A DNA stretch of 64,000 nt from Candidatus Yanofskybacteria bacterium RIFCSPHIGHO2_01_FULL_41_21 (GTDB lineage: Bacteria; Patescibacteriota; Minisyncoccia; 2-02-FULL-40-12; GWA2-44-9): NCBI GenBank assembly GCA_001794025.1, contig MGJA01000008.1, forward strand, positions 358 to 64,357. The letters run 5' to 3'. A program made the translations under genes and the position numbers. Positions 2,971-50,677 of the stretch are shown piece by piece. Position 1 is the first letter of the stretch; each line of letters opens with the position of its first letter. The notes under the pieces are model-generated. The model made no database searches, had not been told where the DNA came from, and saw nothing but the letters and a program-made list of their open reading frames with translations.

Positions 2971-3080
2971 TCCCGTTAGAAGTAACCCTAACGGGTCTAT
3001 AAATATGATAAATTTAACCAGCTATTAGTGCAGTATCCACTGTAACAGAACTGTGGATGGCTGTTACTACTTCTAACGGG
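2971..3080 (+). repeat. family A ~110-nt structured cassette (TIR cccgttagaa/ttctaacggg) abutting rpsB start codon
   Basis: homologous copies at 34572..34681, 50566..50675, 53939..54049, all ending ...ttctaacgggATG. Confidence 0.7.
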
Positions 3081-3779
3081 ATGGAAACTATACAAGACAA
3101 CCTTATTTCGTATGAAGATATGCTCAAGGCGGGTACGCATTTTGGTCGCAAAAAGACCGTTTATAACCCCCAAATGGCGCCTTATGTTTATATCGTTAGA
3201 GACGGTATTTGCATCATTGATCTTCTAAAGACCCAAACCGAATTAACTAATACAATCAAATTTTTAAAAAAGACAGCCGAGAACGGTGGCTTGATGCTTT
3301 TTGTTGGTCTAACCAAACAATCATCGGGTGGTATTAAAGAACTCGCCCAGGCCCTAAATATGCCCTATGTTATTGATCGCTGGATTGGTGGAACCTTGAC
3401 GAACTTTAAGATTATAAATGATCGTGTTAAGAAACTTGAAGAAATGGAAAAAGGTCTGAAAACGGGCGCTTACGATAAATACACTAAAAAAGAACGATTG
3501 ATGTTGACCCGTGAGATGAACAAGATGTCTACTCATTTTGAAGGACTGAAGAAGCTTACTAGAATGCCTGATGTTGTCTTTGTGTCATCTTTAAAAGAAA
3601 GTGCCCTTCCGCTTCATGAATCAAAGAAGATGGGTGTGGCCTGTGTTGCTATCACAAACACCGACTCAAACCCCAAGTCCGTGGACTATATCGTTCCGGC
3701 TAATGATCGTTCCAAGAAATCAGTTGACCTCATTTTGGATGCTCTCAAGCGAGAATTGACAGCTGTAACATCACAGTAA
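3081..3779 (+). CDS. rpsB: 30S ribosomal protein S2
   Basis: GTHFGRKKTVYNP...; start moved from 3057 to 3081 because first 24 nt belong to repeat family A. Confidence 0.9.
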   Translation: METIQDNLISYEDMLKAGTHFGRKKTVYNPQMAPYVYIVRDGICIIDLLKTQTELTNTIKFLKKTAENGGLMLFVGLTKQSSGGIKELAQALNMPYVIDRWIGGTLTNFKIINDRVKKLEEMEKGLKTGAYDKYTKKERLMLTREMNKMSTHFEGLKKLTRMPDVVFVSSLKESALPLHESKKMGVACVAITNTDSNPKSVDYIVPANDRSKKSVDLILDALKRELTAVTSQ

Positions 3780-4315: not shown

Positions 4316-4366
4316 TCACCCGCCTCTGGCGGGTTGCCATAGAGCTATCCGCCAGAGGCGGATGCT
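4316..4366. terminator. pair of opposed GC hairpins cccgcctctggcggg / ccgccagaggcgg (family G)
   Basis: same hairpin recurs at 5283, 5586, 5770 flanking tRNAs. Confidence 0.5.
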
Positions 4367-5235: not shown

Positions 5236-5308
5236 CACGAGTTTTGCCCAAGAGCGAAAAGCGATTGGATACAAAACTCAGTGCCCGCCTCCGGCGGGCC
5301 GAAAAACA

Positions 5309-5581
5309 ATGAGTTACTTTGTTTATGTTTTAAGAAGTAAAAAAGACGGTAAATTGTATACTGGATATTCAGAAGATCCAGAACGTCGTCTCAAGGAACA
5401 TAATGCAGGCAAGACAGTATCTCTATTGAAGCGTAGACCATTGATTATTGTGTATCAAGAGATATACAATAAAGAAATTCAAGCCAAAAGAAGGGAAAGA
5501 TTTTTGAAAACAGGGCAAGGAAGAAAATTTTTGCAGACCGCGTTGAAACTTGCGGTTGTTCAAGATTTTCGCAAGAATTAG
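5309..5581 (+). CDS. GIY-YIG nuclease family protein (YhbQ/UPF0213-like)
   Basis: YFVYVLRSKKDGKLYTGYSEDPERRLKEHN GIY-YIG motif; upstream part of the 5156 ORF overlaps tRNA-Tyr and is discarded. Confidence 0.8.
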   Translation: MSYFVYVLRSKKDGKLYTGYSEDPERRLKEHNAGKTVSLLKRRPLIIVYQEIYNKEIQAKRRERFLKTGQGRKFLQTALKLAVVQDFRKN

Positions 5582-5651
5582 TAGGTGGCCCGCCAGAGGC
5601 GGGCATAGAAATTGTGCCTACTCATAAAAATAATTCGTAGACAATTTCTAT

Positions 5652-5723: not shown

Positions 5724-5873
5724 CTAAGTTTTTGTCCAAGAGCTATAGCGATTGGTTACAAAAAGTTACCCGCCTCTGGCGGGAAGTAGTAGATAATTAA
5801 CCAGTAATTACGTCATATTTAGTAGTATTTAAATAGTTAAGTACTAAACATATTACGTGGTTCAATAGAAATT

Positions 5874-6038
5874 ATGCCACAAGATAATTTATTGAGGATG
5901 AAGTGTACGGTTTGTAAAAGTGCAAACTACTACACCAGTAAGAATAAAAAGAAGGTTGAAAGAAAGATTGAGTTAAAGAAATTTTGCAAAAAGTGCAAAA
6001 AGCGAACTCCTCACAAGGAGGCGCGTATGACCGGGTAG
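5874..6038 (+). CDS. rpmG: 50S ribosomal protein L33 (Zn-ribbon form), 54 aa, absent from ORF track (<60 aa)
   Basis: MPQDNLLRMKCTVCKSANYYTSKNKKKVERKIELKKFCKKCKKRTPHKEAR C4 L33 pattern. Confidence 0.8.
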   Translation: MPQDNLLRMKCTVCKSANYYTSKNKKKVERKIELKKFCKKCKKRTPHKEARMTG

Positions 6039-6112
6039 TAGAAGCCCGAAATGCTTTCAGCAAAAATATGTTCAGGCTTCACTACCCGGCAGGCCGGATA
6101 GAAGTCCGAGAA

Positions 6113-6498: not shown

Positions 6499-6695
6499 AA
6501 ATTTAGTGGTTTTATTTTTAGGGTTCTTGGTTGATATACATTACTACTTTTAATAGATAATATCTTTAAATTTTTATAGAAGATATTTATTTTAAATCTA
6601 TCAACCTTTTATAAAGATAGCATACCTTTATACCCTGTAAATACGTAATGTTGATAAGTAAATCAAAAATCCAGATTTTTAAAGTAAAATCTGGA

Positions 6696-6735
6696 TTTTT
6701 AGGAATTAGGAATTAGGAATTAGGAATTAGGACCC
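6696..6735. repeat. tandem heptamer (ttaggaa)x5
   Basis: taggaattaggaattaggaattaggaattagga; a related tandem sits inside the giant CDS at 7340..7375. Confidence 0.8.
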
Positions 6736-7031: not shown

Positions 7032-10000
7032 ATGTCCGATTATCAGCCCAAAAAATTACCTTCTCAATGGATCTCAATTCAAGAGGCGACGCGTCACGCA
7101 CCGTACTCGCAAGAGTATTTAAGTTTATTGGCGCGACGGGGAAAAATATTTGCTAAAAAAATTGGGCGGAATTGGTATACAACTCATGAAGCGTTAGAAC
7201 GTTATATTTCAGAGCAGACCCTTCTTTCACCGATAGCCAAACAATTCAGTCCTACCGTGGAACTTGCTTCGTCTTCCTCAAATTTAGTGGAAGAATTTAA
7301 ACGTCTTAATCCTCAAGTATTTGGGCAAGAAAAAAAGCAGGAATTAGGAATTAGGAATCAGGAATTAGGAAATACAAAACAAGGGATTGAATCGGTGCCA
7401 TCAGTACTTCCTAATGTTGCGCCAGCTCCGGTTACAATACCAACACCTACTATCCCTGTAATTCCGCAAAATAATTCAGAGAATAAAGTTCTTGAAAAAC
7501 TGGATCGATTATCTGATTCGTTGGAAACGTTTACTTCAAGTGTGACCGCATCAATTCCGGCTATAACCCAAGCGAATCAATCAGCGCCATTAAACCCCGA
7601 GGTTGAAGAATTTGTTCAGGAACGAATAAATTCTTCCATTCATAGATTCCGACATTTTGATCGTTTTGCAAAATCAACAACCCGATCTCCTGTCCGTTTA
7701 ATGGCCGTTATGATTACGGCTGTAGTGTTAATCTTTGTTCTTATCGGCGGGTTCAGTTTTGGAAAAGTAGATGCCGTTGCTCAAAAAATTAAAAAGGCCT
7801 TCAACGATGCCACCACGATTGATGGCCATTTTGCCGGGACGCATGCCAATGAGGTCTTAATTCTGGATAAGGCCGGCAATATTTCAATTTACGGCCATAT
7901 TGAAACCGAAGGTCAGTTTCGGAGCCATGCGCCGGAGGGCGTGGCGCCGATTGTGGTGGATTCGTTGACTAAAGTTGAAAATCTTAATGCTGATTACATT
8001 GATAATCTTAGTTCCCAGGACTTTACCCTCGCCTTCGTTACTAAAAATGGGAACCTAACCTATGAAGATGTCCATCTGATGGGTGATGTTGAAGTGGGAA
8101 AACTTCTTAAAGTCGGCGGGGATGCGATTATTGGGAAGACCCTAACCGTGTCCGGCGCCACCAAGCTAATGGACTCGTTAACTGTTTATGGCAAACTCGG
8201 AGTTCTTTCGGATGCGGTTTTCGGAAAAGATGTCACTCTCACCAATGGTGATCTCGTCATAAGCAAAGGCACCATTAAGATTTCTAATATGACTTTGATT
8301 AAAAATCTTAATGCCGAATATTTGGACGGTGTTAAAAAAGGAGACATCAATCTCAACTTTGTCACTTCAAACGGAAATACGACTTCAAACTCAATTACAG
8401 TTGGGGGTCTCACCTCAACCGGAACCATAACTTCTTACGGTCCGGGATTTTTTAATTCAAGTATCTGGAGTCCTTTCGGTTCTTTTGGTGATTTAGGTGT
8501 CGGAAAGAGCGCCAGTTTTGGCGACTCAAAAAATCCGAGTAATTCAAAATTTGAGGTCTATTCCAGTAAGTTTTCTCTTGATGCGAACGGTAATGCTCGA
8601 TTGGCCGGCACGACCACTACTAATAATTTATTAGTCAGTGGCAGTGTTTTATCGGGACTTATTCCTTCGGGATCATTTGATTTGGGCTCACTAGCACAAC
8701 CGTGGGTAAATCTTTATGCAATTGACGGAAATTTCTCCGGTGATATTACGGTCTCCGGCAGTTTAAATTTTGCCGGCACGACATCAAGTTCTTTTGTTAT
8801 CAATACCGATAATACCGCTTCTGATTCTGAAGATGCTTACTTAGCGTTTAGTCGCGGTTCAATAACTCCGGATGCGAAACTGACATGGAATTCCACTTTT
8901 AAACAATTTGAATTTAATGAACCAGTTAATATTGCCAGTAGTTCTTTCACGGTTGAAGGGAATACTTTTTTGAATAACGCTTCAGTTTCTAATAATTTTG
9001 AAGTTGTTGGCACCGCCTCTATCTCCGGTACCACCACCCTCGCCGGTCAAACCTACACCTGGCCTTCTTCCCAAACAACTAACGGTTTCCTTAAAACAAA
9101 CGGTACCGGCACTTTATCCTGGTCAACCGCTTTCTCCGGTACCATCGCTTCCTTATCTCAAAACTTTGACCCTGCCACCGACAATCAATACGACCTTGGC
9201 GACCCAAGCTACCGCTGGCGAACCGGTTACTTTGGGACCAGTATCATCTCTCCCTTTGCTTCTTTCACCAATGCCAGTGTTTCCAATAACTTTGAGATAG
9301 GTAACATTGCCAGTATCGGAGGAAATGCCACCATCGGCGGTACCCTTGGTGTAACCGGAAACACCACCCTCACAGGTACCCTAACTGGTAATTCAATTGG
9401 TTCCAACTCTTTTCAAGGTAGTTTAGATGTTGCCCTTGGTCTCCACGCTGTTGGTAACGTTACCACCCTTGCCCAATTCCTTTCTTCCGGAACAGGCAGT
9501 AACTCTTTTGCGGGCAGTTTAGATATCACCAAAGGTCTTCGGGCTGCCCAAATCACCGGTACCGGCCTTACCCTAAACGGAAATACCAATATCTCCGGTA
9601 CTCTCAATGTTATTGGTCAATCAAACTTCTCTAACGCTTCCGCTTCATCCGGATTTGAATCAACCTACCTGAAAACGGATACAATCTCTAATTCCACGGG
9701 CACCCTAACCATCAACGCTTTTACCCTTGGCGGATTAGTCACCGGCAACAATCAATCCATTACAGGATTAAATCAACTCACTTCATCTATCGCCAGTATC
9801 TCTACTAACTTTGAAGTCGGTGGTTATGCTTCAATCGGAGGAAACACCACCCTTGCGGGTCAAACATACACCTGGCCTTCCTCTCAAACAACCAACGGTT
9901 TTCTAAAAACAAACGGTTCTGGCACTTTATCCTGGTCAACCGCTTTTGCCGGTACCATAGCTTCCTTATCCCAAAACTTTGACCCCGCCACCGACAATCA

Positions 10001-13000
10001 ATACGACCTTGGCGACCCAAGCTACCGCTGGCGAACCGGTTATTTCGGGACCTCGCTAGGCATCAACAACGGCGGAACATTAAACACCGCCTTTGAAGTC
10101 GGAGGAACTGCTTCTATATCTAATACCTTAACTCTTGGCGGTATTATTACTTCCACAAATACCGGTTCCAACTCTTTCGCTGGAAGCATTGAACTTACTA
10201 AGGGCTTCCGATTCGGTAATCTTACTCAAACCGGAACAGGGATTAATTACTTTGCCGGCAACGTCGGTATTGGGACGAATTCACCGACCTCTCTCTTTAC
10301 TGTCCAAGGTCGGGGAGAATTCCAAGGCACGGCAAGCGCTTCCTATTTCCTAACCGGCAATACGATTCAAGTCGGTGGTTTCTCATCGGCCAGTTATAAC
10401 CGATTCGGGACCGGTACCACCAACCATGCTAATTATATTTCCACTTCTAATGATGTTCTCGTTTCCGGGGATTTGGAAATTTTGGGGACAGCTTCATTTG
10501 AAGGTAATGTCGTTATCGGCGCTACGAGTACAACCACTTTAGCCGTCGGTTCTACAGTCAAAAGCGACCTTATTCCGTTCACCAATGCCTACAATCTTGG
10601 TTCCACTACCAATCATTGGGGGACGCTATATGTTGATACCGCCAATATTACGACTCTAGAAGCATCAACAGCATCTATTTCCGGCACTACCGCTCGGGAT
10701 TTCCTAATTAATTCTGACAATGCTTCGGCGGATGCTGAAGATATGTCCGTCACATTTAAACGAGGTCTGCCTACGGTTAATGCCGCGCTTGAGTGGGATT
10801 CAACCAACAAGCGTTTTAATTTGAATTTTCCGATTTTCGTTCAGACCGTAGATAATCCGGAACCAAGCTATAATTTTACCCAGCTTGTCCTTAAAGGTGC
10901 CGCGGACCAGAGTTCAAATGATTATTTCCAAATTAAAGATTCTTCCGATGTTTCTAAGTTTCGGATAAGCGACAATGGCGCTTCATTTTCGGTTCCGTTT
11001 GAGCTTTCAAATACCGCTTCCATTTCCAACACTCTTACTCTCGGCGGTATCATTACTTCCACAAATACCGGTTCCAACAGTTTCTCGGGCGGTCTGGAAG
11101 TAACCAAAGGCATCCATGCCACGGGTTCAATCACTTCCGGCGGTGATTTAAGAATCAACGGCAACGCTAATCTTAACGGGGTCTTTGTTTTTGGTGACAA
11201 CGGCGATGTCGGGTCAATTAATACTAATGATTGGGACATTGCCATCGACGGCGCCTTAACCGGAATATCTTTTAACGCTAATGGGACCGGTAACTCAATA
11301 TCCAATATTGATAATGGTGACTTAACCGCCGATACTTTGGACTTCACCGCTATTTCCGACAGTCCCACCCTTGACGCTGACCTCTATATTCAAAGAGCCG
11401 GTTTCAAGATTGGTATCGGTAAGACCCCTTCTACCGTCTTTGAAGTCCAAGGCACGGCTTCCGCTTCCTACGGTCTCTTTGGTACCCTCCAAATCGGTGC
11501 CTTCTCATCAACAAGTTACAACAGATTCGGCACCACCACCACCGGTCACTCACTCTCCGCAAGTAATGACCTCTTAATATCCGGAGACCTGGAAGTAGAT
11601 GGTTCTGCATACTTTGATGGAAGCACAATCTTCGGTGCCGGTGCCTCCATTTCCGGTAACTTTGACCCCGCCACCGATAATACATATGACTTAGGGGATG
11701 CAAGTTATCGCTGGCAGACAGGTTATTTCGGAACATCATTGGGTATCAACAATGGAGGTACCCTTGACACCGCCTTTGAAGTCGGTGGCACGGCCTCTAT
11801 CTCTAACACCTTAACCCTCGGCGGTATTATTACTTCCACAAATACCGGTTCTAATTCTTTCTCGGGAAGTATCAATTTAGATAAAGGCCTCCATACTACC
11901 GGTAACGTTACCACCTTAGCCCAATTCCTTTCTTCCGGTACAGGCAGTAACAGTTTTGCTGGCAGTTTAAACATCTCCAAATCATTAACGGCGACCAATA
12001 GTGTTACAGCTGGCAGTTTTGTTACCGCCGGTAATCTCACTGTGGGTGGCAATGAGGTCTTAACGGGGACTTTCACTGGCAACTCTACCGGTTCCAACTC
12101 TTTCGCCGGTTCACTGGATATCATCAAAGGTCTTCGTTCCGCCAACTTCACTCAAGTCGGTTCCGCCCCAAACTACTTTAATGGCAACGTCGGCATCGGG
12201 ACGACGGCGCCAAATATCACGGCTTATGCCGGTCGTGTCTTGACCGTTGGTTCAGGCACGAGTGCGGAACCCGCCATCGAGATTTACGGAGGCAGAACTG
12301 GCTCGGATGGTATAGCAGCGGACATGGCTTTTTTAAACAGTTATGCTACTGGTGCCGATAAACGTATTGCATTGATTCGAGCAAACCGTATTACAGACGA
12401 CAATTCTGGGGGTCTTCAATTTTATTCAAGAAATGCGGGAACATTGGTAGAAGCGTTGCGAATAGATAAAACTGGCAACGTCGGCATCGGGACGACGGGG
12501 CCGGGGAATAAGCTCTCATTTGGCGCGAATAACTCGGCTCAGATTATCTCGTTGTATGAAAGTGGAAATACTAAGGTCACTATTGGTACGAATGACGGAT
12601 TTACATTTGCTGTTCCAAACACAAGTAACAATAATTTTAAATTTGGTACACTTTCCACAGCAGATGGAACAACTTTTTCGGAAAAAGTGAGAATTGATAA
12701 TAGCGGCAACGTCGGCATCGGGACGACGGGGCCTAGTGAATTATTGGAAGTGTCAAAAAGTACGGCAAGTGGAAATACTTTTATTCGTATTACAAATACT
12801 GACACCAGTGCTGATGGTGGTGAAGGGGCCGCTTTGGCATTGTATGAGGCAGGAACTCTTCGAACTCAATTCACTTCGAATTTTCAGGATCAGAAGATGT
12901 ATTTATATCATCGTGGGGACAACAGGGTCACGATAGATAATGTCGGCAACGTCGGCATCGGGACGACGGTACCAGGGCAAGCTTTAGAAGTTGGAGGCAC

Positions 13001-13712
13001 GGGCAAGGTAAAAATCGCCGCTTTGACCACCCAGGGCTATGTCTGCGTGGGTGGCAACCCCGGAGCCGGAGTCCTTTCCGATGGGGGAGCATCGTGTTCC
13101 ACTTCCGATGCCAGATTAAAAATAGACATTACCCCCATCTCGGATTCTCTGAATGTGCTTTCATCCCTGAATCAACTTCACGGAGTTTATTATCGTTGGG
13201 ATTTAAATAATCCAAGAAATGAAGGTATGCCTTCCAGCCGTCAAATCGGTATGATCGCCCAGGATGTGGAACAGGTGTTGCCGGAACTGGTATCTGTCGG
13301 CTCTGACGGCTATCGTTCTTTAGATTACCCCAAATTCACCGGTTTCCTGTTGGAAGCGGTCAAAGAGCTTGATAACAAAACAAACGCTTTGACAGGGCAA
13401 TTTGAGGCATTTACAAGCAAATTAGAGGCCCAATGCGTGACCGGAGATACGAGATTGCGCCGTAGGCGCAAGCGAGCCCGTCCCGATGCCGACGTTGAAG
13501 GCGAATTTGATTTTGATGAAGTTGAAATAAAAGATATTGTTGCAGGCGACGAAATCCAGTCGCTGAATGAGGCCACCGGCCGGGTGGAATTCGCTCGCGT
13601 GAACGCGCTTATGGACATGGGCGTCCAAGAGGTGTATGAATTGGTTACCAAGTCGGGGAGGAAGATTCGGACCACCAAAAATCATCCATATCTGGTAAAA
13701 CTGGGGTCATAA
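7032..13712 (+). CDS. giant tail-fibre-like surface protein: N-terminal HTH, TM helix, GNVGIGTT-type beta-repeats, C-terminal peptidase S74 intramolecular-chaperone domain, then N-terminal half of a split mini-intein
   Basis: HTH (WISIQEATRH...GRNWYT); TM LMAVMITAVVLIFVLIGGF; SDARLK...YYRWD...GMIAQDVEQVLPELV ICA motif; CVTGDT...TKNHPYLV Hint blocks A and B. Confidence 0.85.
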   Translation: MSDYQPKKLPSQWISIQEATRHAPYSQEYLSLLARRGKIFAKKIGRNWYTTHEALERYISEQTLLSPIAKQFSPTVELASSSSNLVEEFKRLNPQVFGQEKKQELGIRNQELGNTKQGIESVPSVLPNVAPAPVTIPTPTIPVIPQNNSENKVLEKLDRLSDSLETFTSSVTASIPAITQANQSAPLNPEVEEFVQERINSSIHRFRHFDRFAKSTTRSPVRLMAVMITAVVLIFVLIGGFSFGKVDAVAQKIKKAFNDATTIDGHFAGTHANEVLILDKAGNISIYGHIETEGQFRSHAPEGVAPIVVDSLTKVENLNADYIDNLSSQDFTLAFVTKNGNLTYEDVHLMGDVEVGKLLKVGGDAIIGKTLTVSGATKLMDSLTVYGKLGVLSDAVFGKDVTLTNGDLVISKGTIKISNMTLIKNLNAEYLDGVKKGDINLNFVTSNGNTTSNSITVGGLTSTGTITSYGPGFFNSSIWSPFGSFGDLGVGKSASFGDSKNPSNSKFEVYSSKFSLDANGNARLAGTTTTNNLLVSGSVLSGLIPSGSFDLGSLAQPWVNLYAIDGNFSGDITVSGSLNFAGTTSSSFVINTDNTASDSEDAYLAFSRGSITPDAKLTWNSTFKQFEFNEPVNIASSSFTVEGNTFLNNASVSNNFEVVGTASISGTTTLAGQTYTWPSSQTTNGFLKTNGTGTLSWSTAFSGTIASLSQNFDPATDNQYDLGDPSYRWRTGYFGTSIISPFASFTNASVSNNFEIGNIASIGGNATIGGTLGVTGNTTLTGTLTGNSIGSNSFQGSLDVALGLHAVGNVTTLAQFLSSGTGSNSFAGSLDITKGLRAAQITGTGLTLNGNTNISGTLNVIGQSNFSNASASSGFESTYLKTDTISNSTGTLTINAFTLGGLVTGNNQSITGLNQLTSSIASISTNFEVGGYASIGGNTTLAGQTYTWPSSQTTNGFLKTNGSGTLSWSTAFAGTIASLSQNFDPATDNQYDLGDPSYRWRTGYFGTSLGINNGGTLNTAFEVGGTASISNTLTLGGIITSTNTGSNSFAGSIELTKGFRFGNLTQTGTGINYFAGNVGIGTNSPTSLFTVQGRGEFQGTASASYFLTGNTIQVGGFSSASYNRFGTGTTNHANYISTSNDVLVSGDLEILGTASFEGNVVIGATSTTTLAVGSTVKSDLIPFTNAYNLGSTTNHWGTLYVDTANITTLEASTASISGTTARDFLINSDNASADAEDMSVTFKRGLPTVNAALEWDSTNKRFNLNFPIFVQTVDNPEPSYNFTQLVLKGAADQSSNDYFQIKDSSDVSKFRISDNGASFSVPFELSNTASISNTLTLGGIITSTNTGSNSFSGGLEVTKGIHATGSITSGGDLRINGNANLNGVFVFGDNGDVGSINTNDWDIAIDGALTGISFNANGTGNSISNIDNGDLTADTLDFTAISDSPTLDADLYIQRAGFKIGIGKTPSTVFEVQGTASASYGLFGTLQIGAFSSTSYNRFGTTTTGHSLSASNDLLISGDLEVDGSAYFDGSTIFGAGASISGNFDPATDNTYDLGDASYRWQTGYFGTSLGINNGGTLDTAFEVGGTASISNTLTLGGIITSTNTGSNSFSGSINLDKGLHTTGNVTTLAQFLSSGTGSNSFAGSLNISKSLTATNSVTAGSFVTAGNLTVGGNEVLTGTFTGNSTGSNSFAGSLDIIKGLRSANFTQVGSAPNYFNGNVGIGTTAPNITAYAGRVLTVGSGTSAEPAIEIYGGRTGSDGIAADMAFLNSYATGADKRIALIRANRITDDNSGGLQFYSRNAGTLVEALRIDKTGNVGIGTTGPGNKLSFGANNSAQIISLYESGNTKVTIGTNDGFTFAVPNTSNNNFKFGTLSTADGTTFSEKVRIDNSGNVGIGTTGPSELLEVSKSTASGNTFIRITNTDTSADGGEGAALALYEAGTLRTQFTSNFQDQKMYLYHRGDNRVTIDNVGNVGIGTTVPGQALEVGGTGKVKIAALTTQGYVCVGGNPGAGVLSDGGASCSTSDARLKIDITPISDSLNVLSSLNQLHGVYYRWDLNNPRNEGMPSSRQIGMIAQDVEQVLPELVSVGSDGYRSLDYPKFTGFLLEAVKELDNKTNALTGQFEAFTSKLEAQCVTGDTRLRRRRKRARPDADVEGEFDFDEVEIKDIVAGDEIQSLNEATGRVEFARVNALMDMGVQEVYELVTKSGRKIRTTKNHPYLVKLGS

Positions 13713-13840
13713 TTTTCAGTTTTCAATTATCAATTTTCAATGAATTTACAATGAATCAATTCATCAAAAAAATACAAAAAATAAGGGGAAGCTATATCAC
13801 GGATAGCGGGGTAAGTGTCGTTTTTTACGAAACTCGTGAG

Positions 13841-16049: not shown

Positions 16050-17638
16050 AAAAGATAAATAATAATAAAATATCGGCATCGGGACGCTCAAAGAGCGGCA
16101 TGAGCAATCTCGGCACCGGGACGTGGACAAAAGTATCGGAATTAAGACCGGGTATGAAAATTGCCGTGCCGAAAAATGAAATCGGCATCGGGACAGACGA
16201 TGTATTGTGGGACGAAATTGTCGCAGTTAATCATATCGGCCGGGAACGGGTCTATGATATTGAAGTGGAAGGCACTCATAATTTTATTGGTAATGATATT
16301 TTCGCTCATAATACTTACATCAATAACGATTTAATAAATATTTCGGCGATTAATCTTGAAGTCGGAGATATTGTTCGGCCCGCCTCGGGTTCCCAAAGGT
16401 TCGTCGTTGCCACTCCGGCTGATGAAAATCAAGTTGCAGGCATTGTTACCGCTACGCCGGCCACTTCAGATAGCGTCTCAACTTCAATCGCTTTTTCGGG
16501 ACAGGCCATAGTAAAGGTCTCGGCGGAAAATGGCGCGATTAAAGTCGGTGATCGGCTGGCCTTAAGCGATAACCAGCCTGGTGTGGCCATAAAAGCCACC
16601 ACGGCCGGCATGACTATCGGTATCGCAATGGAAGACGCAATAGTAGATAGGGTTTTAACTCTTGTTAATGTCGGATATTGGGTGCCGAGTGTGGCGACTG
16701 TTACTGGAACAACTGCCAGTGGTTCGGGAACGGTTACGGTCTCTTCAAGCGGTTCACCGACTGATGTGTTGGCGACATTGGCGAATGCGGTCATGACTCG
16801 TGTTCAGTCAATTTGGGCATCGGGAGATATCATCAAAGAAGGCATAAGCAAAACGTATTTTGCAATTTCCAATTTACAATTATCAATTTCCAATTTTGGA
16901 ACCTCAATCTCTGAAGCAATTAGTAATTGGGGGACCAGAGATATTACTATTGCCAATACGGCGGATGATGCGACCAAGGCATTATTTACGGGCAATTCGG
17001 CGCAAGCGTCTGACCAGTCCAAAGTTGATTTAGCCGAGAATAATGAATATCTGACGACTTATGGCGTGGATTCAACAAGAGGGGAGATTCAACTTTCCGG
17101 TTCGTCGCAAATCGTCGCTGGCGAAGCCAGGGTTTATTTTGACTATTCTTTCTCCTCAATTATTTCCGACAAAGCGCCGATTAGAGTAATCGTAACCCCA
17201 ACCTCAATGATGCAAGGGCAGCTTTACACTGATTCCAAGTCACAATACGGTTTCGTAATTAAAGAATTGAATGCCCAAGATAACGGAACATTTGACTGGC
17301 TGGTGATTGCAAGACGAAAAGGTTTTGATACAGACATAATTTCCACCCCGACCCCGGATTCGACAAGCTCACCACAAGCAACACCGGCCACTGCTCCATC
17401 AACTGACCCTACCCCCACCCCGACTCCTGACGTAGCACCAACATCGGATGTTACTCCTACCCCAACCCCAACCCCTGATGCAGCACCAGTTACTGATGCA
17501 ACACCTGCGCCTACCCCAGAACCAACCCCAGATATAACTCCAGTTCCTGATACTACTCCGACACCTGTCCCAGACGCTACACCAGAACCGACACCATCAT
17601 CAATAACACCCGAAAGTACACCTACCCCAACCCCATAA
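16046..17638 (+). CDS. protein starting with C-terminal half of split mini-intein (16046..16312) followed by C-extein with beta-rich domain and Pro/Thr-rich tail
   Basis: WTKVSELRPGMKIAV...VYDIEVEGTHNFIGNDIFAHN then +1 Thr; PT-rich low-complexity C-terminus. Confidence 0.8.
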   Translation: MKKINNNKISASGRSKSGMSNLGTGTWTKVSELRPGMKIAVPKNEIGIGTDDVLWDEIVAVNHIGRERVYDIEVEGTHNFIGNDIFAHNTYINNDLINISAINLEVGDIVRPASGSQRFVVATPADENQVAGIVTATPATSDSVSTSIAFSGQAIVKVSAENGAIKVGDRLALSDNQPGVAIKATTAGMTIGIAMEDAIVDRVLTLVNVGYWVPSVATVTGTTASGSGTVTVSSSGSPTDVLATLANAVMTRVQSIWASGDIIKEGISKTYFAISNLQLSISNFGTSISEAISNWGTRDITIANTADDATKALFTGNSAQASDQSKVDLAENNEYLTTYGVDSTRGEIQLSGSSQIVAGEARVYFDYSFSSIISDKAPIRVIVTPTSMMQGQLYTDSKSQYGFVIKELNAQDNGTFDWLVIARRKGFDTDIISTPTPDSTSSPQATPATAPSTDPTPTPTPDVAPTSDVTPTPTPTPDAAPVTDATPAPTPEPTPDITPVPDTTPTPVPDATPEPTPSSITPESTPTPTP

Positions 17639-17655: not shown

Positions 17656-17689
17656 AGATTATTTCTTGTGCATATGCACAGTAAATAAT
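17656..17689. repeat. palindrome family F copy (gtgcatatgcac core) 20 nt upstream of PaaX-like gene
   Basis: gattatttcttgtgcatatgcacagtaaataatc. Confidence 0.65.
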
Positions 17690-17708
17690 CCGTGTTATAA
17701 TTTGTCAT

Positions 17709-18242: not shown

Positions 18243-18282
18243 AGTGATTATTCCTTGTGCATATGCACAAGGAATAATCACT
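18243..18282. repeat. perfect 40-bp palindrome family F copy immediately after PaaX-like stop
   Basis: agtgattattccttgtgcatatgcacaaggaataatcact. Confidence 0.7.
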
Positions 18283-18410: not shown

Positions 18411-20861
18411 GTGTCTTTAGTGATGGACATTAATCTCATGGATTCCGCATTTGAGGAATCGGTAGCAGGCGGATTCGACGAGCTCACCACAGGCGAGCAG
18501 GAAGCAGTATTAGCTATGGCGGGGACGAGTCACGAACAGGCAGTTAAAGGGGTTAAGGTCTATCAGACAATTGTCCGGTGGGCGTTGATGGTGGGCGTCT
18601 TTTTGATGCCTTTATTATTTTTGCCATGGACGACGAATGTTTTGGAAATGAACAAGGGCTTGCTGGTGTTGGCGGTGGCAGGGACGGGTTTGATTGCTTG
18701 GTTGTTGGCACTCGTCTCCAGTGGGCGGTTTGCGTGGCGTCCGAACGTGTTTGATAAAGGTGTTTTGGCTATTCTTGGCGCGACGGTGGTGGCGACGGTC
18801 TTTTCAATGTCACGATTTAACAGTTTGTTTGGCACCGCCAGTAATTTGGCGGGGTCATTGATGATAATTGCCGCTTTTTCTGTCATCTATTTCTTGATTG
18901 TAAATTCGGTTGAAGATGAAGGCCGAACATTGACGAACCTCATTACCGCTTCTTTGTCGCTGGTGTTTTTATTCGGTTTTCTGCAAATTGTCGGATTTCA
19001 TATATTTAAATATTTAAATATATCAGTATTAAAATTTGCCGACTCATCCGCATTCAATTCGGTCGGCTCCGTTAACGGGCTAGGGGTTCTGGCGGCTATC
19101 TGCCTGCCTTTATTGGGGGGAAGCAAACAAAAAGTTTCAATATTTAAATATTTAAATATTATTGGAACAGTTGTGGCAATTGCCATTCTTGTGGTTATCA
19201 ATTGGTGGGTTCTCTGGACGATTGCCATCGTTGGTATGGCTGGCTGGATTACCTTTGAAAGTTTAGTCAATCAAAAATTCTCTATTTCCAGATTTATCGT
19301 CCCAATGACAGTGATTGTTATTGGGGTCTTTTTGATGGTGGTTAATTTTAATCTTAGTGTAATTAAATCCGGTCTTCCGACGGAAATAGCGCCATCATTT
19401 GGATTGTCCAGTGAGGTAACTAAATCGGCTTTGAAAGAAAGTATGGCAACCGGCTATGGTCCGACCATGTTTTCTATGGCCTTTGATAAGTACGGCGCTT
19501 CTAAACTTATTGATTCCACACTTTCCAATGCTAAGTTTTTTGCGGGGACATCCGAGGTCTTTAATGCTGTCGTTGGCGGAGGATTAGTGATGGTTTTAGC
19601 GTTGTTAGTGATGGTTTGGGCGATGATTCAAGGCGTTATTCGTTTTATTCGTGACAAACAAGCGGTTCGTAGAACAAATGCTCAATATATTTGGACTACT
19701 TTGGTCGCGGTGGTGGCGGCTTTCTTGCTCTATCCGTTTAACATGACCTTGATGTTTATGGCCTATCTCGTTCTTGCTCTGGCCGTGTTGTCATTATGGG
19801 GAAACGTCTCTAAAGAATATGACGCCGAACATAACATTGCGGTTTCTTTGGCGTCTTCCCTCGGATTTATCGGCGGGTTGATTCTGGTTCTTGTCGGCGC
19901 CTTTTTCGGTATCTCGGCCTATATCGCCGATGCCCAATACGCCAAGGCCTTGACCGAACAGGATATTGATAAGGCCTCAGCGAATTTAGTTAGTGCCGTG
20001 AATTGGAACAACCAGAGCGATGCCTATTACCGTACCGCCTCCCAAGCGGCGTTGGGTCTTTTGAGTCAAGAATTAAACAAGAAAGCCGATCCGGCCGATA
20101 CCCAACAGACGGCGCGTATCCAGAACTATATGGGTTCGGCCATTAATCTCGCTAAGAAAGCCACAGAACTAGGCCCTCGCGAATCATTAAACTGGAATAA
20201 TCTCGGTAATATTTATCAAAACCTTCTTGGTCTGGTTGGGGGCGTGGATGCTCTTTCTGCCAGTGCTTATGAAAAAGCGTCAGAATTACGTCCCGGCGAT
20301 CCGACATTCTTTAATTCAATCGGCAATCTTTATCTCACCCAGTCCCAAATGTTGCGTCAAGCGGCATCCGGCAATAAGGACTCAGCCCAATTAATTCAAC
20401 AAGCCAACGAGTCACTTGTTTTAGCAGAAACAAATTTCAAGAAAGCCGTAGATATGTCGCCTAATTTTGGCTTGGCCATTTATAATTTAGGGATTGTCTA
20501 TGACCAGCAAAATAAACTTCCAGAAGCCATTAAACAATTGGAAAAAATAGCGCCGTTCAATAATGATCAACCCAATCTGTTATTCCAGTTAGGTTTGCTC
20601 TATTATCGTAATGATGAAAAAGACAAGGCCTTCAATACTTTACAACAAGTGTTGGTCTTGCAACCGAACTACTCTAATGCTCTTTGGTATCTGGCTTTGA
20701 TTTACGAAGAACGCAAAGATATTCCGAATGCCATTGTTCAAGTTAAAAAGATTCTCGCGATTGAAGCCAATAAAGATAATCAGACCGTCTTAGATAAACT
20801 TAGCCAACTTGAAGCGGGCCAAGTTCCACCAAACAAGGGTATCAATCAGGAACCAATCTAA
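18411..20861 (+). CDS. polytopic membrane protein with C-terminal TPR repeats (O-antigen-ligase/TPR-type architecture)
   Basis: >10 predicted TM segments in first 500 aa; C-terminal TPR units (AIYNLGIVYDQQNKLPEA..., LLFQLGLLYYRNDEKDKA...). Confidence 0.65.
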   Translation: MSLVMDINLMDSAFEESVAGGFDELTTGEQEAVLAMAGTSHEQAVKGVKVYQTIVRWALMVGVFLMPLLFLPWTTNVLEMNKGLLVLAVAGTGLIAWLLALVSSGRFAWRPNVFDKGVLAILGATVVATVFSMSRFNSLFGTASNLAGSLMIIAAFSVIYFLIVNSVEDEGRTLTNLITASLSLVFLFGFLQIVGFHIFKYLNISVLKFADSSAFNSVGSVNGLGVLAAICLPLLGGSKQKVSIFKYLNIIGTVVAIAILVVINWWVLWTIAIVGMAGWITFESLVNQKFSISRFIVPMTVIVIGVFLMVVNFNLSVIKSGLPTEIAPSFGLSSEVTKSALKESMATGYGPTMFSMAFDKYGASKLIDSTLSNAKFFAGTSEVFNAVVGGGLVMVLALLVMVWAMIQGVIRFIRDKQAVRRTNAQYIWTTLVAVVAAFLLYPFNMTLMFMAYLVLALAVLSLWGNVSKEYDAEHNIAVSLASSLGFIGGLILVLVGAFFGISAYIADAQYAKALTEQDIDKASANLVSAVNWNNQSDAYYRTASQAALGLLSQELNKKADPADTQQTARIQNYMGSAINLAKKATELGPRESLNWNNLGNIYQNLLGLVGGVDALSASAYEKASELRPGDPTFFNSIGNLYLTQSQMLRQAASGNKDSAQLIQQANESLVLAETNFKKAVDMSPNFGLAIYNLGIVYDQQNKLPEAIKQLEKIAPFNNDQPNLLFQLGLLYYRNDEKDKAFNTLQQVLVLQPNYSNALWYLALIYEERKDIPNAIVQVKKILAIEANKDNQTVLDKLSQLEAGQVPPNKGINQEPI

Positions 20862-20940
20862 AATCAGGATATTAGGGATTAGGATTCTAGGAAGCTAGTA
20901 TAAAACTAAGCACCCTAGATTCCTATACACCTAGATTCCT
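20861..20940. repeat. 80-nt structured repeat family D (copy 1)
   Basis: near-identical to 23019..23099; internal inverted repeat ggattctagg/cctagattcc. Confidence 0.75.
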
Positions 20941-22480: not shown

Positions 22481-23020
22481 ATGAAAAGCAGAACACAAAA
22501 AAAGGAAGAACTGAAATCGTTGCAGAGTAAACTCCCGAATTCGCAAATTACGGTTTTTACGTCATTTGCTCGCACTGGCGAAAAAGGTTTGTCGGTGGCT
22601 CAAATGACTCAGTTAAAACGTCTTTTACGGGAAATTAAATCAGAGTATGTTGTCACTAAGAAGACATTGGTGGAAATGGCGACCAAGGATATGTCGGGGG
22701 ATGCCGTGGTTGATGTCTATAGTATGGTTGGCTCACTTGGACTCGTTGTCGGTCCGGTTAAAGATAAGAACGGAGTAAACAGTGAGGAATCATATGGTAT
22801 CGCCAAGAAGGTCTATGACTTTGCCAAGAAAAATCCGGCATTGCAGTTTTTTGGGGCATTCGTGGACGGTATGTTTATTTCCAAAGAACAATTTCTTGAA
22901 ATGGCCAAGATGCCTTCCAGAGAAGTTCTTATTGGTCGTTTATTGGGAATGATGCGTTACCCGTTATCAGGTCTAGCGATAGTTCTTAATCAAGTTAGTA
23001 AACAAAAGGAAACGGTATAA
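22481..23020 (+). CDS. rplJ: 50S ribosomal protein L10
   Basis: L10 sequence, followed by rplL. Confidence 0.9.
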   Translation: MKSRTQKKEELKSLQSKLPNSQITVFTSFARTGEKGLSVAQMTQLKRLLREIKSEYVVTKKTLVEMATKDMSGDAVVDVYSMVGSLGLVVGPVKDKNGVNSEESYGIAKKVYDFAKKNPALQFFGAFVDGMFISKEQFLEMAKMPSREVLIGRLLGMMRYPLSGLAIVLNQVSKQKETV

Positions 23021-23099
23021 TCAGGATGTTAGGGATTAGGATTCTAGGAAGCTAGCATGAAACTAAGCACCCTAGATTCCTAGATACCTAAATTCCTAG
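23019..23099. repeat. 80-nt structured repeat family D (copy 2)
   Basis: aatcaggatgttagggattaggattctaggaagctag...cctagattcctag. Confidence 0.75.
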
Positions 23100-33971: not shown

Positions 33972-34571
33972 TTACTTCCTAAACTCTAAGGCATGTTTAA
34001 GGGTGCTTTCATCGGCGTACTCTAAATGAGAACCGGAAGCCAATCCACGGCCGAGACGGGTGATTAAGACATTGGGCTTGTCGGTAAACTGGCTTTTTAG
34101 ATATAAGGCGGTTGTCTCACCGGGAGTATTGGGGTTCATGGCGAGGATTAACTCTACTTCTTTGACTGATTCAGTTAAGACATTAATTCTTGATTCAAGG
34201 TGTTTGATTCTAAGGTTGTCAGGTAAGACGTTGTCTAGGGGATTAATCGCTCCACCAAGGACATGATAAAGGCCTTTGTAGAGCCCTGTCTTTTCAATTG
34301 AATCCAGGTCGGTAACTTTTTCAACTACGAGCATTTTTGTCCTATCGCGGGATGGGTTAGAACAGACCGAGCAAACAGCACTGTCGCTTATATTAAAACA
34401 CTGGTTACAGAAAGATATATCTTGTTTTAGATGACTAATCGCATATCCCAATTCTTCTATTTCCGAATCGGGTTTATCCAATAAAGCCAAAACAAACCGC
34501 ACCGCCTGTCGCGGACCGACCCCCGGCAATCTTTGGAATAATTTAGCTATTTGTTTAAATCGTTCATCCAT
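33972..34571 (-). CDS. recR: recombination protein RecR
   Basis: C4 zinc finger CNQC...CSVC plus Toprim; start moved to MDERFKQIAKLFQRLPGVG because upstream 36 nt belong to repeat family A. Confidence 0.85.
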   Translation of the reverse strand: MDERFKQIAKLFQRLPGVGPRQAVRFVLALLDKPDSEIEELGYAISHLKQDISFCNQCFNISDSAVCSVCSNPSRDRTKMLVVEKVTDLDSIEKTGLYKGLYHVLGGAINPLDNVLPDNLRIKHLESRINVLTESVKEVELILAMNPNTPGETTALYLKSQFTDKPNVLITRLGRGLASGSHLEYADESTLKHALEFRK

Positions 34572-34681
34572 CCCGTTAGAAGTGCTACAAACCGTCCACC
34601 ATATCAAGGTGGTGGCAAGCTGTAGTTACATTATTAATGATTAACATTATTTATATCCGTTAGGATTCACTTCTAACGGGA
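34572..34681 (-). repeat. family A cassette copy abutting recR start codon
   Basis: TIR cccgttagaagtg/cacttctaacggg; internal hairpin ccacc-atatcaa-ggtgg. Confidence 0.7.
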
Positions 34682-36076
34682 CTAGAATTCTATTTCTTCT
34701 ATATTTTGACCGCCGGTTAGATATTCGTCGGTATAACCGCCTTGGTTATCAAGGTGGAAACGTAAACTGGATGGGTCAATACGAAATTTAATTTCCCCTG
34801 TTGGACCATTGCGGTGTTTGGCGATAATCAGTTCGGCAAGATTTTGTTTGCTGGGGTCAACTTGGTCTTTGCTTTTCATTTTATCTTCACGATGAATAAA
34901 CATTACCAAGTCGGCATCTTGTTCGATAGAACCGGAATCGCGTAAATCAGAAAGTTTTGGTCGATGGCCGTCTCGCTGTTCAATGGCACGAGAAAGTTGG
35001 GATAAGGCGATAATAGGGACATTTAATTCTTTGGCTAAGCCCTTCAGTCCGCGTGAAATTTCGGTAACCATTTGAACGGGACTGTCATAATTTCGTCTTC
35101 CGCTCATAAGTTGGAGGTAATCAACAATAATAAGTCCGAGGCCATGTTCGGCTTGAAGTCGACGAGCCATGGCTCGCATTTGCAAAATATTCGGAGAAGG
35201 GGAATCGTCAATATATAAAGGAAAATTCTTTAATTCGTCACAGGCCATGGTGACCCGAAGAAGCTCGTCTTGTTCTTGTGAAAGTTTGCCCGTGCGCATT
35301 TCCCACAAACTTACACCGGAAGCTAGGGCGATAAAGCGGTCAACAACTTGGTCAATGGACATTTCCATACTAAAGACACCGACAGGGATTTTTTGTTTGG
35401 CGATATTATAGGCCAGGTTGATGGCGAGAGCGGTTTTACCGACTGATGGTCGCGCAGCGAGAACAATCAAATCGGATTTTTGGAAACCGCCAAGCATATT
35501 GTCCAAGTCCAGATAACCGGTCTTGTGACCCCGCAAACTGCCGTCGTGTTGAGTAGTGATGCGTTCAATGGCTCCGTCAAGAGTACTGCCGACATCAAGG
35601 AAGTTTTTTGTGAGTGATTTTGATGAGACCGCGAAAAGCTTCTTTTCGGCTTCATCCAATAAATCTTCAACTTCTTCTTCCTCACGATAGCCCAAACCAA
35701 TCATATGGTGGGCGGCGTCAATAAGGTCACGAAGCATTTTTTTACGTTGAACAATCTTGGCGTAGGTGGCGATATGGGCTGAGGTCGGTACAGAATTTAC
35801 TAATGAAGTGAGATAGGCCAGTCCGCCGATATTTTCCAGCGCATTCATCTCGCTTAATTTATTAGACAAACTCAAAAGGTCAATGGGTTCATGATGTTCA
35901 AACAAAGTAAACGCCGCTTGGGCGATCAATTGATGCCCATGCTGATAAAAATCTTCAGGGCGTATAATATCGGCAATCTTGTTAATTGCCTCTCTATCTA
36001 GGATCAGCGCACCAAGGATTGATTTTTCGGCATCTATGCTCTGGGGGGGTAATTTGTCGGGTGGAATAGATGACAT
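34682..36076 (-). CDS. dnaB: replicative DNA helicase DnaB
   Basis: Walker A ARPSVGKTALAIN, IIVDYLQLM, N-terminal DnaB domain. Confidence 0.9.
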   Translation of the reverse strand: MSSIPPDKLPPQSIDAEKSILGALILDREAINKIADIIRPEDFYQHGHQLIAQAAFTLFEHHEPIDLLSLSNKLSEMNALENIGGLAYLTSLVNSVPTSAHIATYAKIVQRKKMLRDLIDAAHHMIGLGYREEEEVEDLLDEAEKKLFAVSSKSLTKNFLDVGSTLDGAIERITTQHDGSLRGHKTGYLDLDNMLGGFQKSDLIVLAARPSVGKTALAINLAYNIAKQKIPVGVFSMEMSIDQVVDRFIALASGVSLWEMRTGKLSQEQDELLRVTMACDELKNFPLYIDDSPSPNILQMRAMARRLQAEHGLGLIIVDYLQLMSGRRNYDSPVQMVTEISRGLKGLAKELNVPIIALSQLSRAIEQRDGHRPKLSDLRDSGSIEQDADLVMFIHREDKMKSKDQVDPSKQNLAELIIAKHRNGPTGEIKFRIDPSSLRFHLDNQGGYTDEYLTGGQNIEEIEF

Positions 36077-36170
36077 AGTGATATCTCATTATTACAAGAT
36101 AAAAAAACAACGCAAGTTAAAAATAAACCGACTGGGGACAAAACTGTTGATAGCTGGACAGAGGGAAATT

Positions 36171-36425
36171 TTCTCAGCTTCCTCTTGGACTATTTCTAGC
36201 AACTCTTCCTAATTTCTCTGACCAGCCGAAGCAACTCCTGTCGGGCCATGCGGCTTCGCTTTGCTCACCCGTTCCCGACATCCTCGGGCTGGTACCCAGA
36301 GAAATACGTTGTATATTTAATTCGTTCGGACAAAATGATTTTCAATCACTTTGCTCCTCACTCATAAATATAGCGTCAGAGTTGCTGAAATAGAGCCAAT
36401 CGTGCAGATTGAGAAAATTTCCCTC
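36171..36425. mobile_element. MITE-like element, family C variant (TIR gagggaaattttctcag)
   Basis: core ...tgtcgggccatgcgg...ggtacccagagaaata... shared with 42955, 46468, 62592, 63349 copies. Confidence 0.55.
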
Positions 36426-36458: not shown

Positions 36459-36567
36459 AAAGAATTGAAAACTCGCCCTTTGACCCAGTAGCGGAGGGGG
36501 ACCCTTTGGGGGAACCGCCGGGACTGGTTCCCCGGGTCTGGGGCAAAGGGCGAGTTTTCAATTCTTT
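36459..36567. repeat. GC-rich structured repeat family B with 24-bp perfect TIR aaagaattgaaaactcgccctttg
   Basis: core acccagtagcggagggggaccc...ggggaaccgccgggactggttccccgggtctgggg; copies at 39364, 46246, 53382. Confidence 0.65.
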
Positions 36568-39363: not shown

Positions 39364-39550
39364 CATCCACCCCAACTACCAACTCAATCATCACTTGGGA
39401 CCACTCTTATCCCCAGACCCAGGGAACCAGTCCCGTCGGTTCCCCCACAGAGTGGGACCCCCTCCGCTACTGGGTCTAAGAGTGGCCCCCAAGCGACTCA
39501 ATGTGAAATGATTTTAGGATTTCTTGCTGGGAGTTAGGGTGTCGGTTGCC
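39364..39550. repeat. GC-rich long-hairpin repeat family B (extended copy)
   Basis: ccactcttatccccagacccagggaaccagtcccgtcggttccccc...gggtctaagagtgg; near-identical to 46246..46440. Confidence 0.65.
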
Positions 39551-40404: not shown

Positions 40405-40410
40405 ATAATA

Positions 40411-40496
40411 ATTTTCAATTATCAATTTACAATAAATTATCAATAGCTCAATTCTCAAACACTGAAAATTGAAAACTGAAAATTGTAAATTAAACC
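40411..40496 (+). repeat. AT-rich ~85-nt element upstream of grpE (family H), tandem tgaaaattg units, terminal aatttacaat/attgtaaatt
   Basis: direct repeat of 40948..41042. Confidence 0.7.
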
Positions 40497-42940: not shown

Positions 42941-42954
42941 TCGCTCGGCTGTAA

Positions 42955-50675: not shown

Positions 50676-50677
50676 AC

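Follow-up and report, generated by a model that had tools for sequence, protein, structure and literature searches.

Correia/NEMIS elements of Neisseria and ERIC/IRU elements of enterobacteria are 100 to 150 bp long, carry terminal inverted repeats (TIRs) and a short target duplication, occur in many copies, and have no coding capacity; they are found within or beside transcription units, and the transcript of the neighboring gene includes them as hairpin RNA. The IS200/IS605, PATE, and REP/RAYT elements have sub-terminal hairpins and a Y1 HUH transposase and make no target duplication, with IS200/IS605 and PATE inserting 3' of a tetra- or pentanucleotide. GIY-YIG homing genes spread by cleavage of the empty allele and repair from an occupied one; they are expressed from host signals, are kept low by RNA structure, and encode enzymes of >200 amino acids (aa) with a C-terminal DNA-binding domain and with neither TIRs nor target duplications. 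Here, we describe a family of short elements (family A) represented by four homologous copies of 110 to 112 nt in a 64-kb stretch of contig MGJA01000008.1 from [quoted passage not shown] (hereafter, the window), each of them abutting the start codon of a gene, namely, rpsB, recR, a metal ATP-binding cassette (ABC) permease gene, and def. The most probable interpretation, to which we assign a probability of roughly 80%, is that these cassettes are non-autonomous deletion derivatives, akin to MITEs (miniature inverted-repeat transposable elements), of a tiny element that encodes a GIY-YIG nuclease.

The window cassettes resemble Correia/NEMIS and ERIC/IRU in their size, TIRs, short duplication, and lack of coding capacity. 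However, their termini are different, their target is TGRR and not TA, they are placed exactly at start codons in a fixed polarity, and the start codon is restored by their last base; instead of a DDE transposase, the coding relative encodes an 85-aa GIY-YIG protein, and the family is spread over dozens of candidate phyla instead of a single genus. A very small size, hairpin-forming ends, abundant derivatives without an open reading frame (ORF), and a short specific target are shared with IS200/IS605, PATE, and REP/RAYT, from which family A is set apart by true TIRs, a 4-bp duplication, and the GIY-YIG protein; assignment to IS200/IS605 or PATE is ruled out by the presence of a duplication and the terminal position of the repeats. 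As in the homing genes of the T4 Seg and I-TevI types, a selfish GIY-YIG gene is found between or before host genes, but here it encodes a bare domain of ~85 aa that falls in the Slx1/UPF0213 branch and outside the UvrC/I-TevI one, and comes with TIRs, duplications, and ORF-less derivatives. The best match in both sequence and fold is UPF0213 (BH0048, EF2693, and the Escherichia coli YhbQ type), which has the same minimal domain. A 2006 survey of the superfamily described the bacterial standalone Slx1-like proteins as minimal, vertically inherited, and of unknown role, and UPF0213 is held to be a vertically inherited housekeeping or repair family (PMC1564403), whereas the genes described here are bounded by repeats that encode their termini and are found at many unrelated gene starts. 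Finally, the RPEs of Rickettsia are likewise palindromic, ~100 to 150 bp long, found in reduced genomes, and preserve the reading of the host gene. However, RPEs are in frame and translated within the host protein, whereas here read-through is avoided (0 of 13 cases) and the start codon is duplicated. Searches of the full-text literature, with most subscription journals outside their coverage, turned up no account of these termini or of any GIY-YIG element bounded by repeats. This mobile element of candidate phyla radiation (CPR) bacteria has apparently not been described before, and its start-codon niche and GIY-YIG coding partner are unprecedented among MITE-like elements.

Four cassettes and their insertion sites

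The positions of the four copies were given correctly, to within one base, in a first-pass annotation of this DNA, and the features that it listed (TIRs, an internal GC hairpin, and an AT-rich stretch) are all present. The cores, running from CCCG to CGGG, are located at 2972-3080 on the plus strand and at 34572-34680, 50566-50675, and 53939-54048 on the minus strand, with the adjoining ATG codons at 3081 (rpsB, plus), 34571 (recR, minus), 50565 (ABC permease, minus), and 53938 (def, minus). All four have perfect 13-bp TIRs, CCCGTTAGAA…TTCTAACGGG (left, CCCGTTAGAARTN; right, NAYTTCTAACGGG), which are lengthened by an outermost T (left) and A (right), the latter, at the 3' end, doubling as the first base of the host ATG. 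An nhmmer profile built from these copies matches exactly four places in the window (E = 4e-27 to 3e-33), beyond which it gives only weak self-antisense matches. The internal polarity relative to the adjoining gene is identical in all four. Each copy, taken as a single strand, has a predicted fold much more stable than those of its shuffled versions (z = -5.2 to -6.9, with none of 200 shuffles as good), which consists of a closing helix formed by both termini, a small 5' hairpin, an open AT-rich stretch, and a GC hairpin beside the 3' terminus. The closing helix takes in the A and U of the host AUG, in agreement with the earlier suggestion that the terminus can pair with the start region. A local complement of the left terminus, CTAACGGG, is found ~18 nt inside the left arm. 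The coding capacity of these copies is limited to ORFs of at most 31 codons.

In three of the four copies, the start codon is repeated at the far flank as a target-site duplication: the flanks read ATGGAT-element-ATGGAA at rpsB, ATGAGT-element-ATGAGT at the permease gene, and ATGGAT-element-ATGGAA at def, the sequence found on both sides being (A)TGGA or (A)TGAG. Copy 1, an ORF-less one (2971-3081 with its terminal T…A, plus strand), provides with its right end the A of the rpsB ATG (3081-3083). The left target copy, ATGGA (2966-2970, plus), is the original rpsB start and opens a 20-codon upstream ORF; its right counterpart is at 3081-3085. Copy 2 (34571-34681, minus), recognized by homology, fold, and profile match, adjoins the recR ATG (34569-34571), and its upstream flank is the TAG stop codon (34682-34684) of the preceding 464-aa gene. 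Copy 3 (50565-50676, minus), supported by homology and fold and by an empty site in relatives, separates the stop codon of the ABC ATPase from the ATG of the permease. Its left TGAG duplicate (50677-50680, minus) holds the TGA stop of the ATPase (50678-50680), and the right one (50561-50564) is part of the permease ATGAGT. Copy 4 (53938-54049, minus), again recognized by homology, fold, and profile match, is 96% identical to copy 3 and adjoins the def ATG (53936-53938), with TGGA duplicates at 54050-54053 and 53934-53937. Directly upstream of its left ATGGAT, the sequence contains a degenerate right terminus of an older copy, TTCTAACGAG (54055-54064, minus), which indicates that the def start codon had held an older copy before copy 4 came, a case of repeated insertion at one start codon. 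Tandem copies with only ATTCAT or GTGAAC between them are seen in two other genomes (L017 and L113). Two of the window copies are located at gene junctions inside operons.

Orthologous loci from related organisms reveal the state before insertion. For rpsB, the comparison was made with S2 orthologues of 83 to 91% identity from related Parcubacteria (loci L265, L267, and L268/L269). All three relative loci have the arrangement TTGATT-17 nt-TATTAT (or TAGGAT)-10 nt-ATG(A/G)ATACC… and are free of the element. The promoter-like site, TTGATT-17-TATTAT (2927-2955, plus), and the 10-nt spacer before the left ATG are the same in the window, where they are followed by ATGGA, the element, ATGGA again, and then the homologous coding sequence; this site, which makes rpsB near-leaderless, is thus conserved in relatives that lack the element. 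In two relatives with ATPases 84 to 86% identical to the window one (L270 and L271), the ABC junction is a plain ATGA overlap, …cataaATGAgc or …cacaaATGAcc, where the window reads …CACAAATGAG T-element-ATGAG TGAC. The rpsB and ABC sites therefore show a clean insertion with (A)TGRR duplicated, and the proposal that the cassette is mobile DNA is borne out at both.

Relatives in other genomes

The family was traced by screening one genome per species for both terminal 10-mers spaced 75 to 105 nt apart (at least 119 loci) and by a scan of metagenomes for termini 245 to 275 nt apart (at least 120 loci; 122 elements of 265 to 295 nt listed). All counts for the short (n = 129 to 130) and long (n = 120 to 122) elements given below cover the listed matches only. 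Some 250 further elements with the same termini, CCCGTTAGA…TCTAACGGG (left…right), were listed in these genomes and metagenomes. They belong mostly to Patescibacteria, including Saccharibacteria, many lineages of Parcubacteria, Kazan, Berkelbacteria, Doudnabacteria, and Levyibacteria, with ~25 loci in Omnitrophota, Planctomycetota, Desulfobacterota, and others. Only 3 matches were found among 2.9 million viral contigs, so phage carriage is not a major feature of the family. Between genomes, only the ends are common and the interiors are unrelated. Perfect TIRs have a median length of 12 nt in 130 relatives and reach 12 nt or more in 111 of 130, and positions 11 and 12 of the repeat show complementary changes across genomes.

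The 4 nt outside the terminal pair are the same on both sides in 63% of 129 short elements, compared to 8% for shuffled partners, and the terminal pair is T…A in 76 and C…G in 49 elements. Among the exact duplications (n = 126), TGAA is found in 60, TGGA in 16, TGAG in 11, and TTTA/TAAA in 18. Since AA, GA, or AG follows only 37% of ordinary gene starts at the same loci, the excess of TGRR reflects a real sequence preference. From pairs such as ATGAAC…GTGAAG, it is evident that the Y…R pair at the ends is part of the element, that 4 bp are duplicated, and that the new ATG or GTG of the host is completed by the element's own last base. Judging from the flanks, it is thus shown that insertion takes place after the A of 5'-ATGRR (mostly ATGAA, ATGGA, and ATGAG), in a fixed polarity and with duplication of the 4 bp TGRR; that the last base of the element (A, or G in the C…G variant) and the duplicated TG rebuild the host ATG or GTG; and that the original start codon is left at the upstream end of the element.

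ORFs of 60 aa or more begin directly at the element in 79 of 130 short and in 57 of 122 long cases, whereas only ~9% of the ATGRR sites in the same DNA are such starts; the placement noted in the window is non-random in other genomes as well. A real gene start is adjoined by 57 of 87 CPR elements, versus 7 of 25 from other organisms. The constant orientation, too, holds elsewhere. In short copies, the motif …TCC-TAY plus repeat, which is the 3' end of the nuclease ORF in the coding element, occupies the gene-proximal arm 40 times and the distal arm 6 times (p = 3e-7), and a complement of the left terminus 13 to 45 nt inside the element is confined to the gene-distal arm (20:0, p = 2e-6); the window copies represent the subfamily with this internal complement. 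GC-content asymmetry as a polarity marker gave no signal. From the two markers, ORF-less copies keep the polarity of the coding element, and the window copies are best read as internal-deletion derivatives.

Several variants of the family were also observed. Hairpin-only versions of 27 to 46 nt contain little beyond the two termini (L049, 6508-6553; L059, 1263-1290; L088, 3953-3979; L054, ~6014-6041), some with duplicated flanks, ATAAAT…ATAAAT. In a Bdellovibrionales metagenome-assembled genome (L105, 5058-5165), the same terminal repeats surround a complete tRNA-Ala (CGC) and no nuclease ORF. A C…G-ended subfamily in Desulfobacterota, Planctomycetota, and Omnitrophota (e.g., L003, L023, L035, L042, L072, and L096) duplicates TAAA/TTTA, as in GTAAAC…GTAAA and GTTTAC…GTTTAC; it usually does not adjoin a start codon and has interiors with GGGGCATTAAACCCC-type hairpins.

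The full-length element and its nuclease

Two loci have elements of ~277 nt with the same ends and a small GIY-YIG ORF. In the metagenome set, phmmer searches with two queries only detected a GIY-YIG protein in 96 of the 122 elements. The full-length form is ~275 bp long and consists of 11- to 13-bp TIRs around a single standalone GIY-YIG ORF of ~85 aa of the Slx1/UPF0213 type. When these 96 elements are oriented by the ORF, the downstream flank opens with ATG in 45 and with GTG in 18, placing the nuclease gene co-directionally with the adjoining host gene; the upstream flank has ATG at -6 in 34, and divergent arrangements are almost absent. The ORF starts 13 to 21 nt inside the left repeat, and its conserved C terminus, …RLKRFLSLTG, is partly encoded by the right repeat (…SLTG). 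The stop codon is at +1, formed with the host ATGA, in 52 of 95 elements (TGA in 46, TAA in 6) and is a TAA in the right repeat (-7), 4 nt before the host ATG, in 23 more of them. Of 37 elements whose upstream flank retains the old start codon, 22 can be read from it without interruption, in frame, into the nuclease ORF (p = 0.001 versus one third), and the 94-aa forms in public databases start with MNPVRD, that is, ATG AAT and the translated left repeat. The flanks of the long elements match in 37.5% of 120 cases, again against 8% for shuffled partners.

The protein belongs to the GIY-YIG family (Pfam ID PF01541; E = 2e-15) and is a bare 85-aa domain with no linked DNA-binding domain. Residues Y5, Y15, G17, R25, H29, E49, R60, and E61 are invariant in 33 sequences, and the catalytic residues are intact. 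More than 6,100 clusters at 90% identity are named only “GIY-YIG nuclease family protein” or “putative endonuclease.” The AlphaFold (AF2) model has a predicted local distance difference test score (pLDDT) of 91.6, and the closest folds are those of UPF0213 proteins BH0048 and EF2693 (1zg2 and 1ywl) and of the Slx1-Slx4 nuclease domain (TM score of ~0.63 and root mean square deviation of ~2.1 Å for the predicted structure), not those of I-TevI or UvrC. No transposase of the DDE, Y1-HUH, or serine type, as in a conventional insertion sequence (IS), lies between the ends, the sole ORF there being PF01541 GIY-YIG.

The first-pass annotation had contrasted the cassette with a MITE, and that contrast does not hold. 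The cassettes have TIRs, a target duplication with empty sites, a length of 110 to 112 nt, four copies per 64 kb, no gene for a nuclease or any other mobilizing enzyme, and a longer coding relative with the same ends in other genomes; the nuclease would be the mobilizer. A broader interpretation, which we offer tentatively and at slightly less than even odds, is that the full-length relatives may constitute an unrecognized class of prokaryotic transposable elements, among the smallest autonomous DNA elements (~275 bp), which would specialize in start codons, especially those of leaderless genes, and borrow transcription and translation starts from the host, and whose nuclease would act on a hairpin or cruciform formed by their own ends, with the window cassettes as non-autonomous offspring that use the same ribosome relay (see below). 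The nuclease, acting in trans in the case of short copies, would cut the base of this repeat-formed structure, as Slx1 cuts branched DNA. The enrichment at start codons may combine the TGRR preference with the loss of insertions elsewhere.

A different source of mobility would be a conventional IS, with a DDE transposase encoded elsewhere, the GIY-YIG ORF as cargo, and the start-codon position resulting from survivorship. TIRs with a 4-bp duplication are indeed the classic signature of DDE transposition, a lone GIY-YIG domain has no known integration chemistry, and the ATGRR preference with purifying selection could alone enrich for starts. What makes such an ordinary MITE improbable in our view is the composition of the long elements: the 96 GIY-YIG-positive ones have exactly one such ORF and, within ~255 nt, room for nothing else, and the ORF has termini encoded by the repeats and a stop codon supplied by the target, which implies a long co-evolution of ORF, repeats, and target. 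Furthermore, in 0.9 Mb of flanking DNA, there was no pair of solo termini 0.6 to 3 kb apart around a transposase and no convincing case of a conventional transposase between distant solo termini.

Expression of the host gene

The promoter part of the “mobile promoter plus leader module” proposed in the first-pass annotation is not supported; its mobile, gene-oriented, and non-random character is. A scan for sigma-70-type promoters, with non-canonical ones outside its scope, found none in the gene orientation inside any of the four copies, and the rpsB promoter lies outside the element. A domesticated regulatory module, i.e., a portable promoter with a structured 5' leader that drives or controls rpsB, recR, the permease gene, and def, is unlikely. 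Its attractions are the same polarity at four unrelated genes, the stable fold with the A and U of the AUG in the closing helix, the AT-rich segment, the fixation of the element in all near-identical strains, and the two possible pairing partners of the left terminus, the internal CTAACGGG and the right terminus, a choice that could serve as a switch. However, the rpsB promoter is older than the insertion, two copies are found at intra-operon junctions, only the termini and not the interior are conserved between genomes, the four genes have no common regulatory logic, and elsewhere the same termini enclose a nuclease gene.

The same fold could be taken to mean a structured RNA gene or a cis-regulatory RNA (riboswitch, small RNA, or ribozyme) upstream of genes, and both the complementary changes at repeat positions 11 and 12 and the prevalence of perfect repeats of at least 12 nt (111 of 130) speak for this reading; we regard this as very improbable, given the target duplications and empty sites, the unconserved interior, the protein-coding longer members, and the fact that Rfam 15 gave no match at the window copies at the gathering threshold and none at E ≤ 1 in four related loci. 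Integron attC sites, which have the form RYYYAAC…GTTRRRY (R''-L''…L'-R') and lie at the 3' ends of promoterless cassettes in arrays beside an integrase, do not fit, as the GTTAGAA/TTCTAAC boxes here are in the opposite order and the copies are 3 to 31 kb apart at the 5' ends of housekeeping genes.

Only 10 of 98 occupied start codons are preceded by a Shine-Dalgarno-like motif, and 34 of the 98 old ATG codons have a -10-like TAnnnT 6 to 7 nt upstream, compared to 13.4% of 1,520 ordinary ORF starts (p = 7e-8); the usual target is thus a leaderless gene. In the mostly CPR loci L001-L239, the frequency of TAnnnT is highest 6 nt ahead of the first ATG in long ORFs and Shine-Dalgarno-like motifs are no commoner, which suggests that leaderless mRNAs are frequent in these bacteria. 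As the duplicated TGRR corresponds to positions +2 to +5 of the transcript, one might speculate that the element targets DNA melted at leaderless promoters.

ORF-less copies often contain a bridge ORF, i.e., a reading open across the whole ~100 nt from the retained old start codon to TAA(-7) or TGA(+1), which is found in 19 of 60 cases versus 6 of 120 control frames (p = 3e-6), and in none of 13 does the old start codon run in frame into the host protein. On this last count, the element is rejected as an in-frame N-terminal extension from the old start codon. A Shine-Dalgarno sequence bridged across the hairpin finds no support, because targets seldom carry one (10 of 98). We propose a ribosome relay, in which ribosomes would load at the original start and proceed along the nuclease or bridge ORF; their entry into the element would melt the terminal helix, in which the A and U of the new AUG are paired, and they would terminate within 4 nt of the rebuilt AUG and re-initiate there. 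Such a relay would keep the host gene expressed, and the element would need no promoter or ribosome-binding site of its own. In the window, copies 3 and 4 each have a bridge ORF of 31 codons, whose ATG lies just inside the left repeat and whose TAA precedes the host ATG by 4 nt, and copy 2 has only a partial one, a 20-codon ORF that ends 16 nt before the host ATG. The relay is plausible for copies 2, 3, and 4.

Points against the proposed origin

Several observations weigh against the derivation of the cassettes from a GIY-YIG element that moves and is expressed in this manner. Copy 1, at rpsB, has only its 20-codon upstream ORF, which ends 52 nt upstream, and no bridge ORF; the relay does not explain this copy, and coupling is not the whole story there. 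Copy 2 (recR) lacks a recognizable target duplication, for which recombination between two copies might be the reason. Approximately one-fourth of the listed elements elsewhere are located away from start codons, especially outside the CPR. We know of no strand-transfer or integration chemistry for a bare GIY-YIG domain, and the nuclease could in principle be a passenger. Exact look-ups of the extended S2, the extended deformylase, and the upstream 193-aa protein in public assemblies of near-identical strains (from Rifle groundwater and other sources) found the element at rpsB, def, and the neighboring permease junction in all of them; it is fixed at these sites and there is no sign of current activity. 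Furthermore, the 64-kb window has no full-length copy with family A termini, and its only GIY-YIG gene, which encodes a 90-aa protein of a sister subfamily (36% identity) and is located between tRNA-Tyr and tRNA-Thr (5309-5581, plus), is flanked by GC palindromes and not by family A repeats.

These palindromes, GCCCGCCNNNGGCGGGC, are found at 4318-4334, 5283-5299, 5588-5604, and 5768-5784, with 4 in the window versus 0.02 expected. In a related strain (L242), the place of the GIY-YIG gene at 5309-5581 is taken by an unrelated ORF of 85 aa; the gene is accordingly variable between strains. This gene could be a source, in trans, of the nuclease for the family A copies.

The elements also affect gene calling. 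An in-frame ATG is found 24 nt inside three copies (3057-3080, 50566-50589, and 53939-53962), which leads gene callers to add 8 residues (M..…SNG) to S2, the permease, and the deformylase. Public protein sets hold the extended S2 of 240 aa (true length, 232) and the extended deformylase of 159 aa (true length, 151) and not the true forms; look-ups with the un-extended proteins came back empty because gene callers use the internal ATG.

Other repeats in the window

The window contains several further repeat families. A second MITE-like family of ~186 nt, with TIRs TCACTTTTCTCAC…GTGAGAAAAGTGA, has two copies that are 99% identical (42954-43139 and 62607-62792) and relatives at 36166-36306, 63402-63542, and 46571-46666; all its members are intergenic. 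A third intergenic family, with the hairpin GGGGGAACCGACGGGACTGGTTCCC, is found at 39403-39549, 46291-46439, 53390-53470, and 36501-36548, one copy being located between def and fmt. Many intergenic spacers are filled by 7-nt tandem repeats (AGGAATT, AATTTTC, and relatives), with runs at 6687-6732, 7325-7384, 13711-13741, 16864-16908, 40402-40491, 40947-41036, 20859-20940, and 23016-23097. Near-identical perfect palindromes of 34 to 38 nt, GTGATTATTTGGTGTGCATATGCACACCAAATAATCAC, are found just after genes at 2105-2142, 17657-17690, and 18244-18281 and could be operator or terminator-like sites. Finally, a 2,226-aa ORF (7032-13712, plus) contains internal repeat families of 50 to 260 nt, with the GGCAACGTCGGCATCGGGACGA motif recurring every ~240 to 290 nt.

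Implications

The proposed combination of start-codon duplication and ribosome relay would explain how a selfish element is tolerated before such genes as rpsB and def in tiny, packed genomes. For genome annotation, the consequence is that host proteins are called 8 codons too long and that MNPVRD-extended forms of the nuclease are called; in uncultivated bacteria, the elements are also markers of leaderless gene starts. As a compact translational coupler, the geometry of termination and reinitiation could find use. If the nuclease mobilizes the element, this would be a new catalytic class of bacterial transposons and would lower the minimum size of an autonomous element; if true, it would also provide a role for the thousands of small “GIY-YIG nuclease family protein” entries in CPR genomes.

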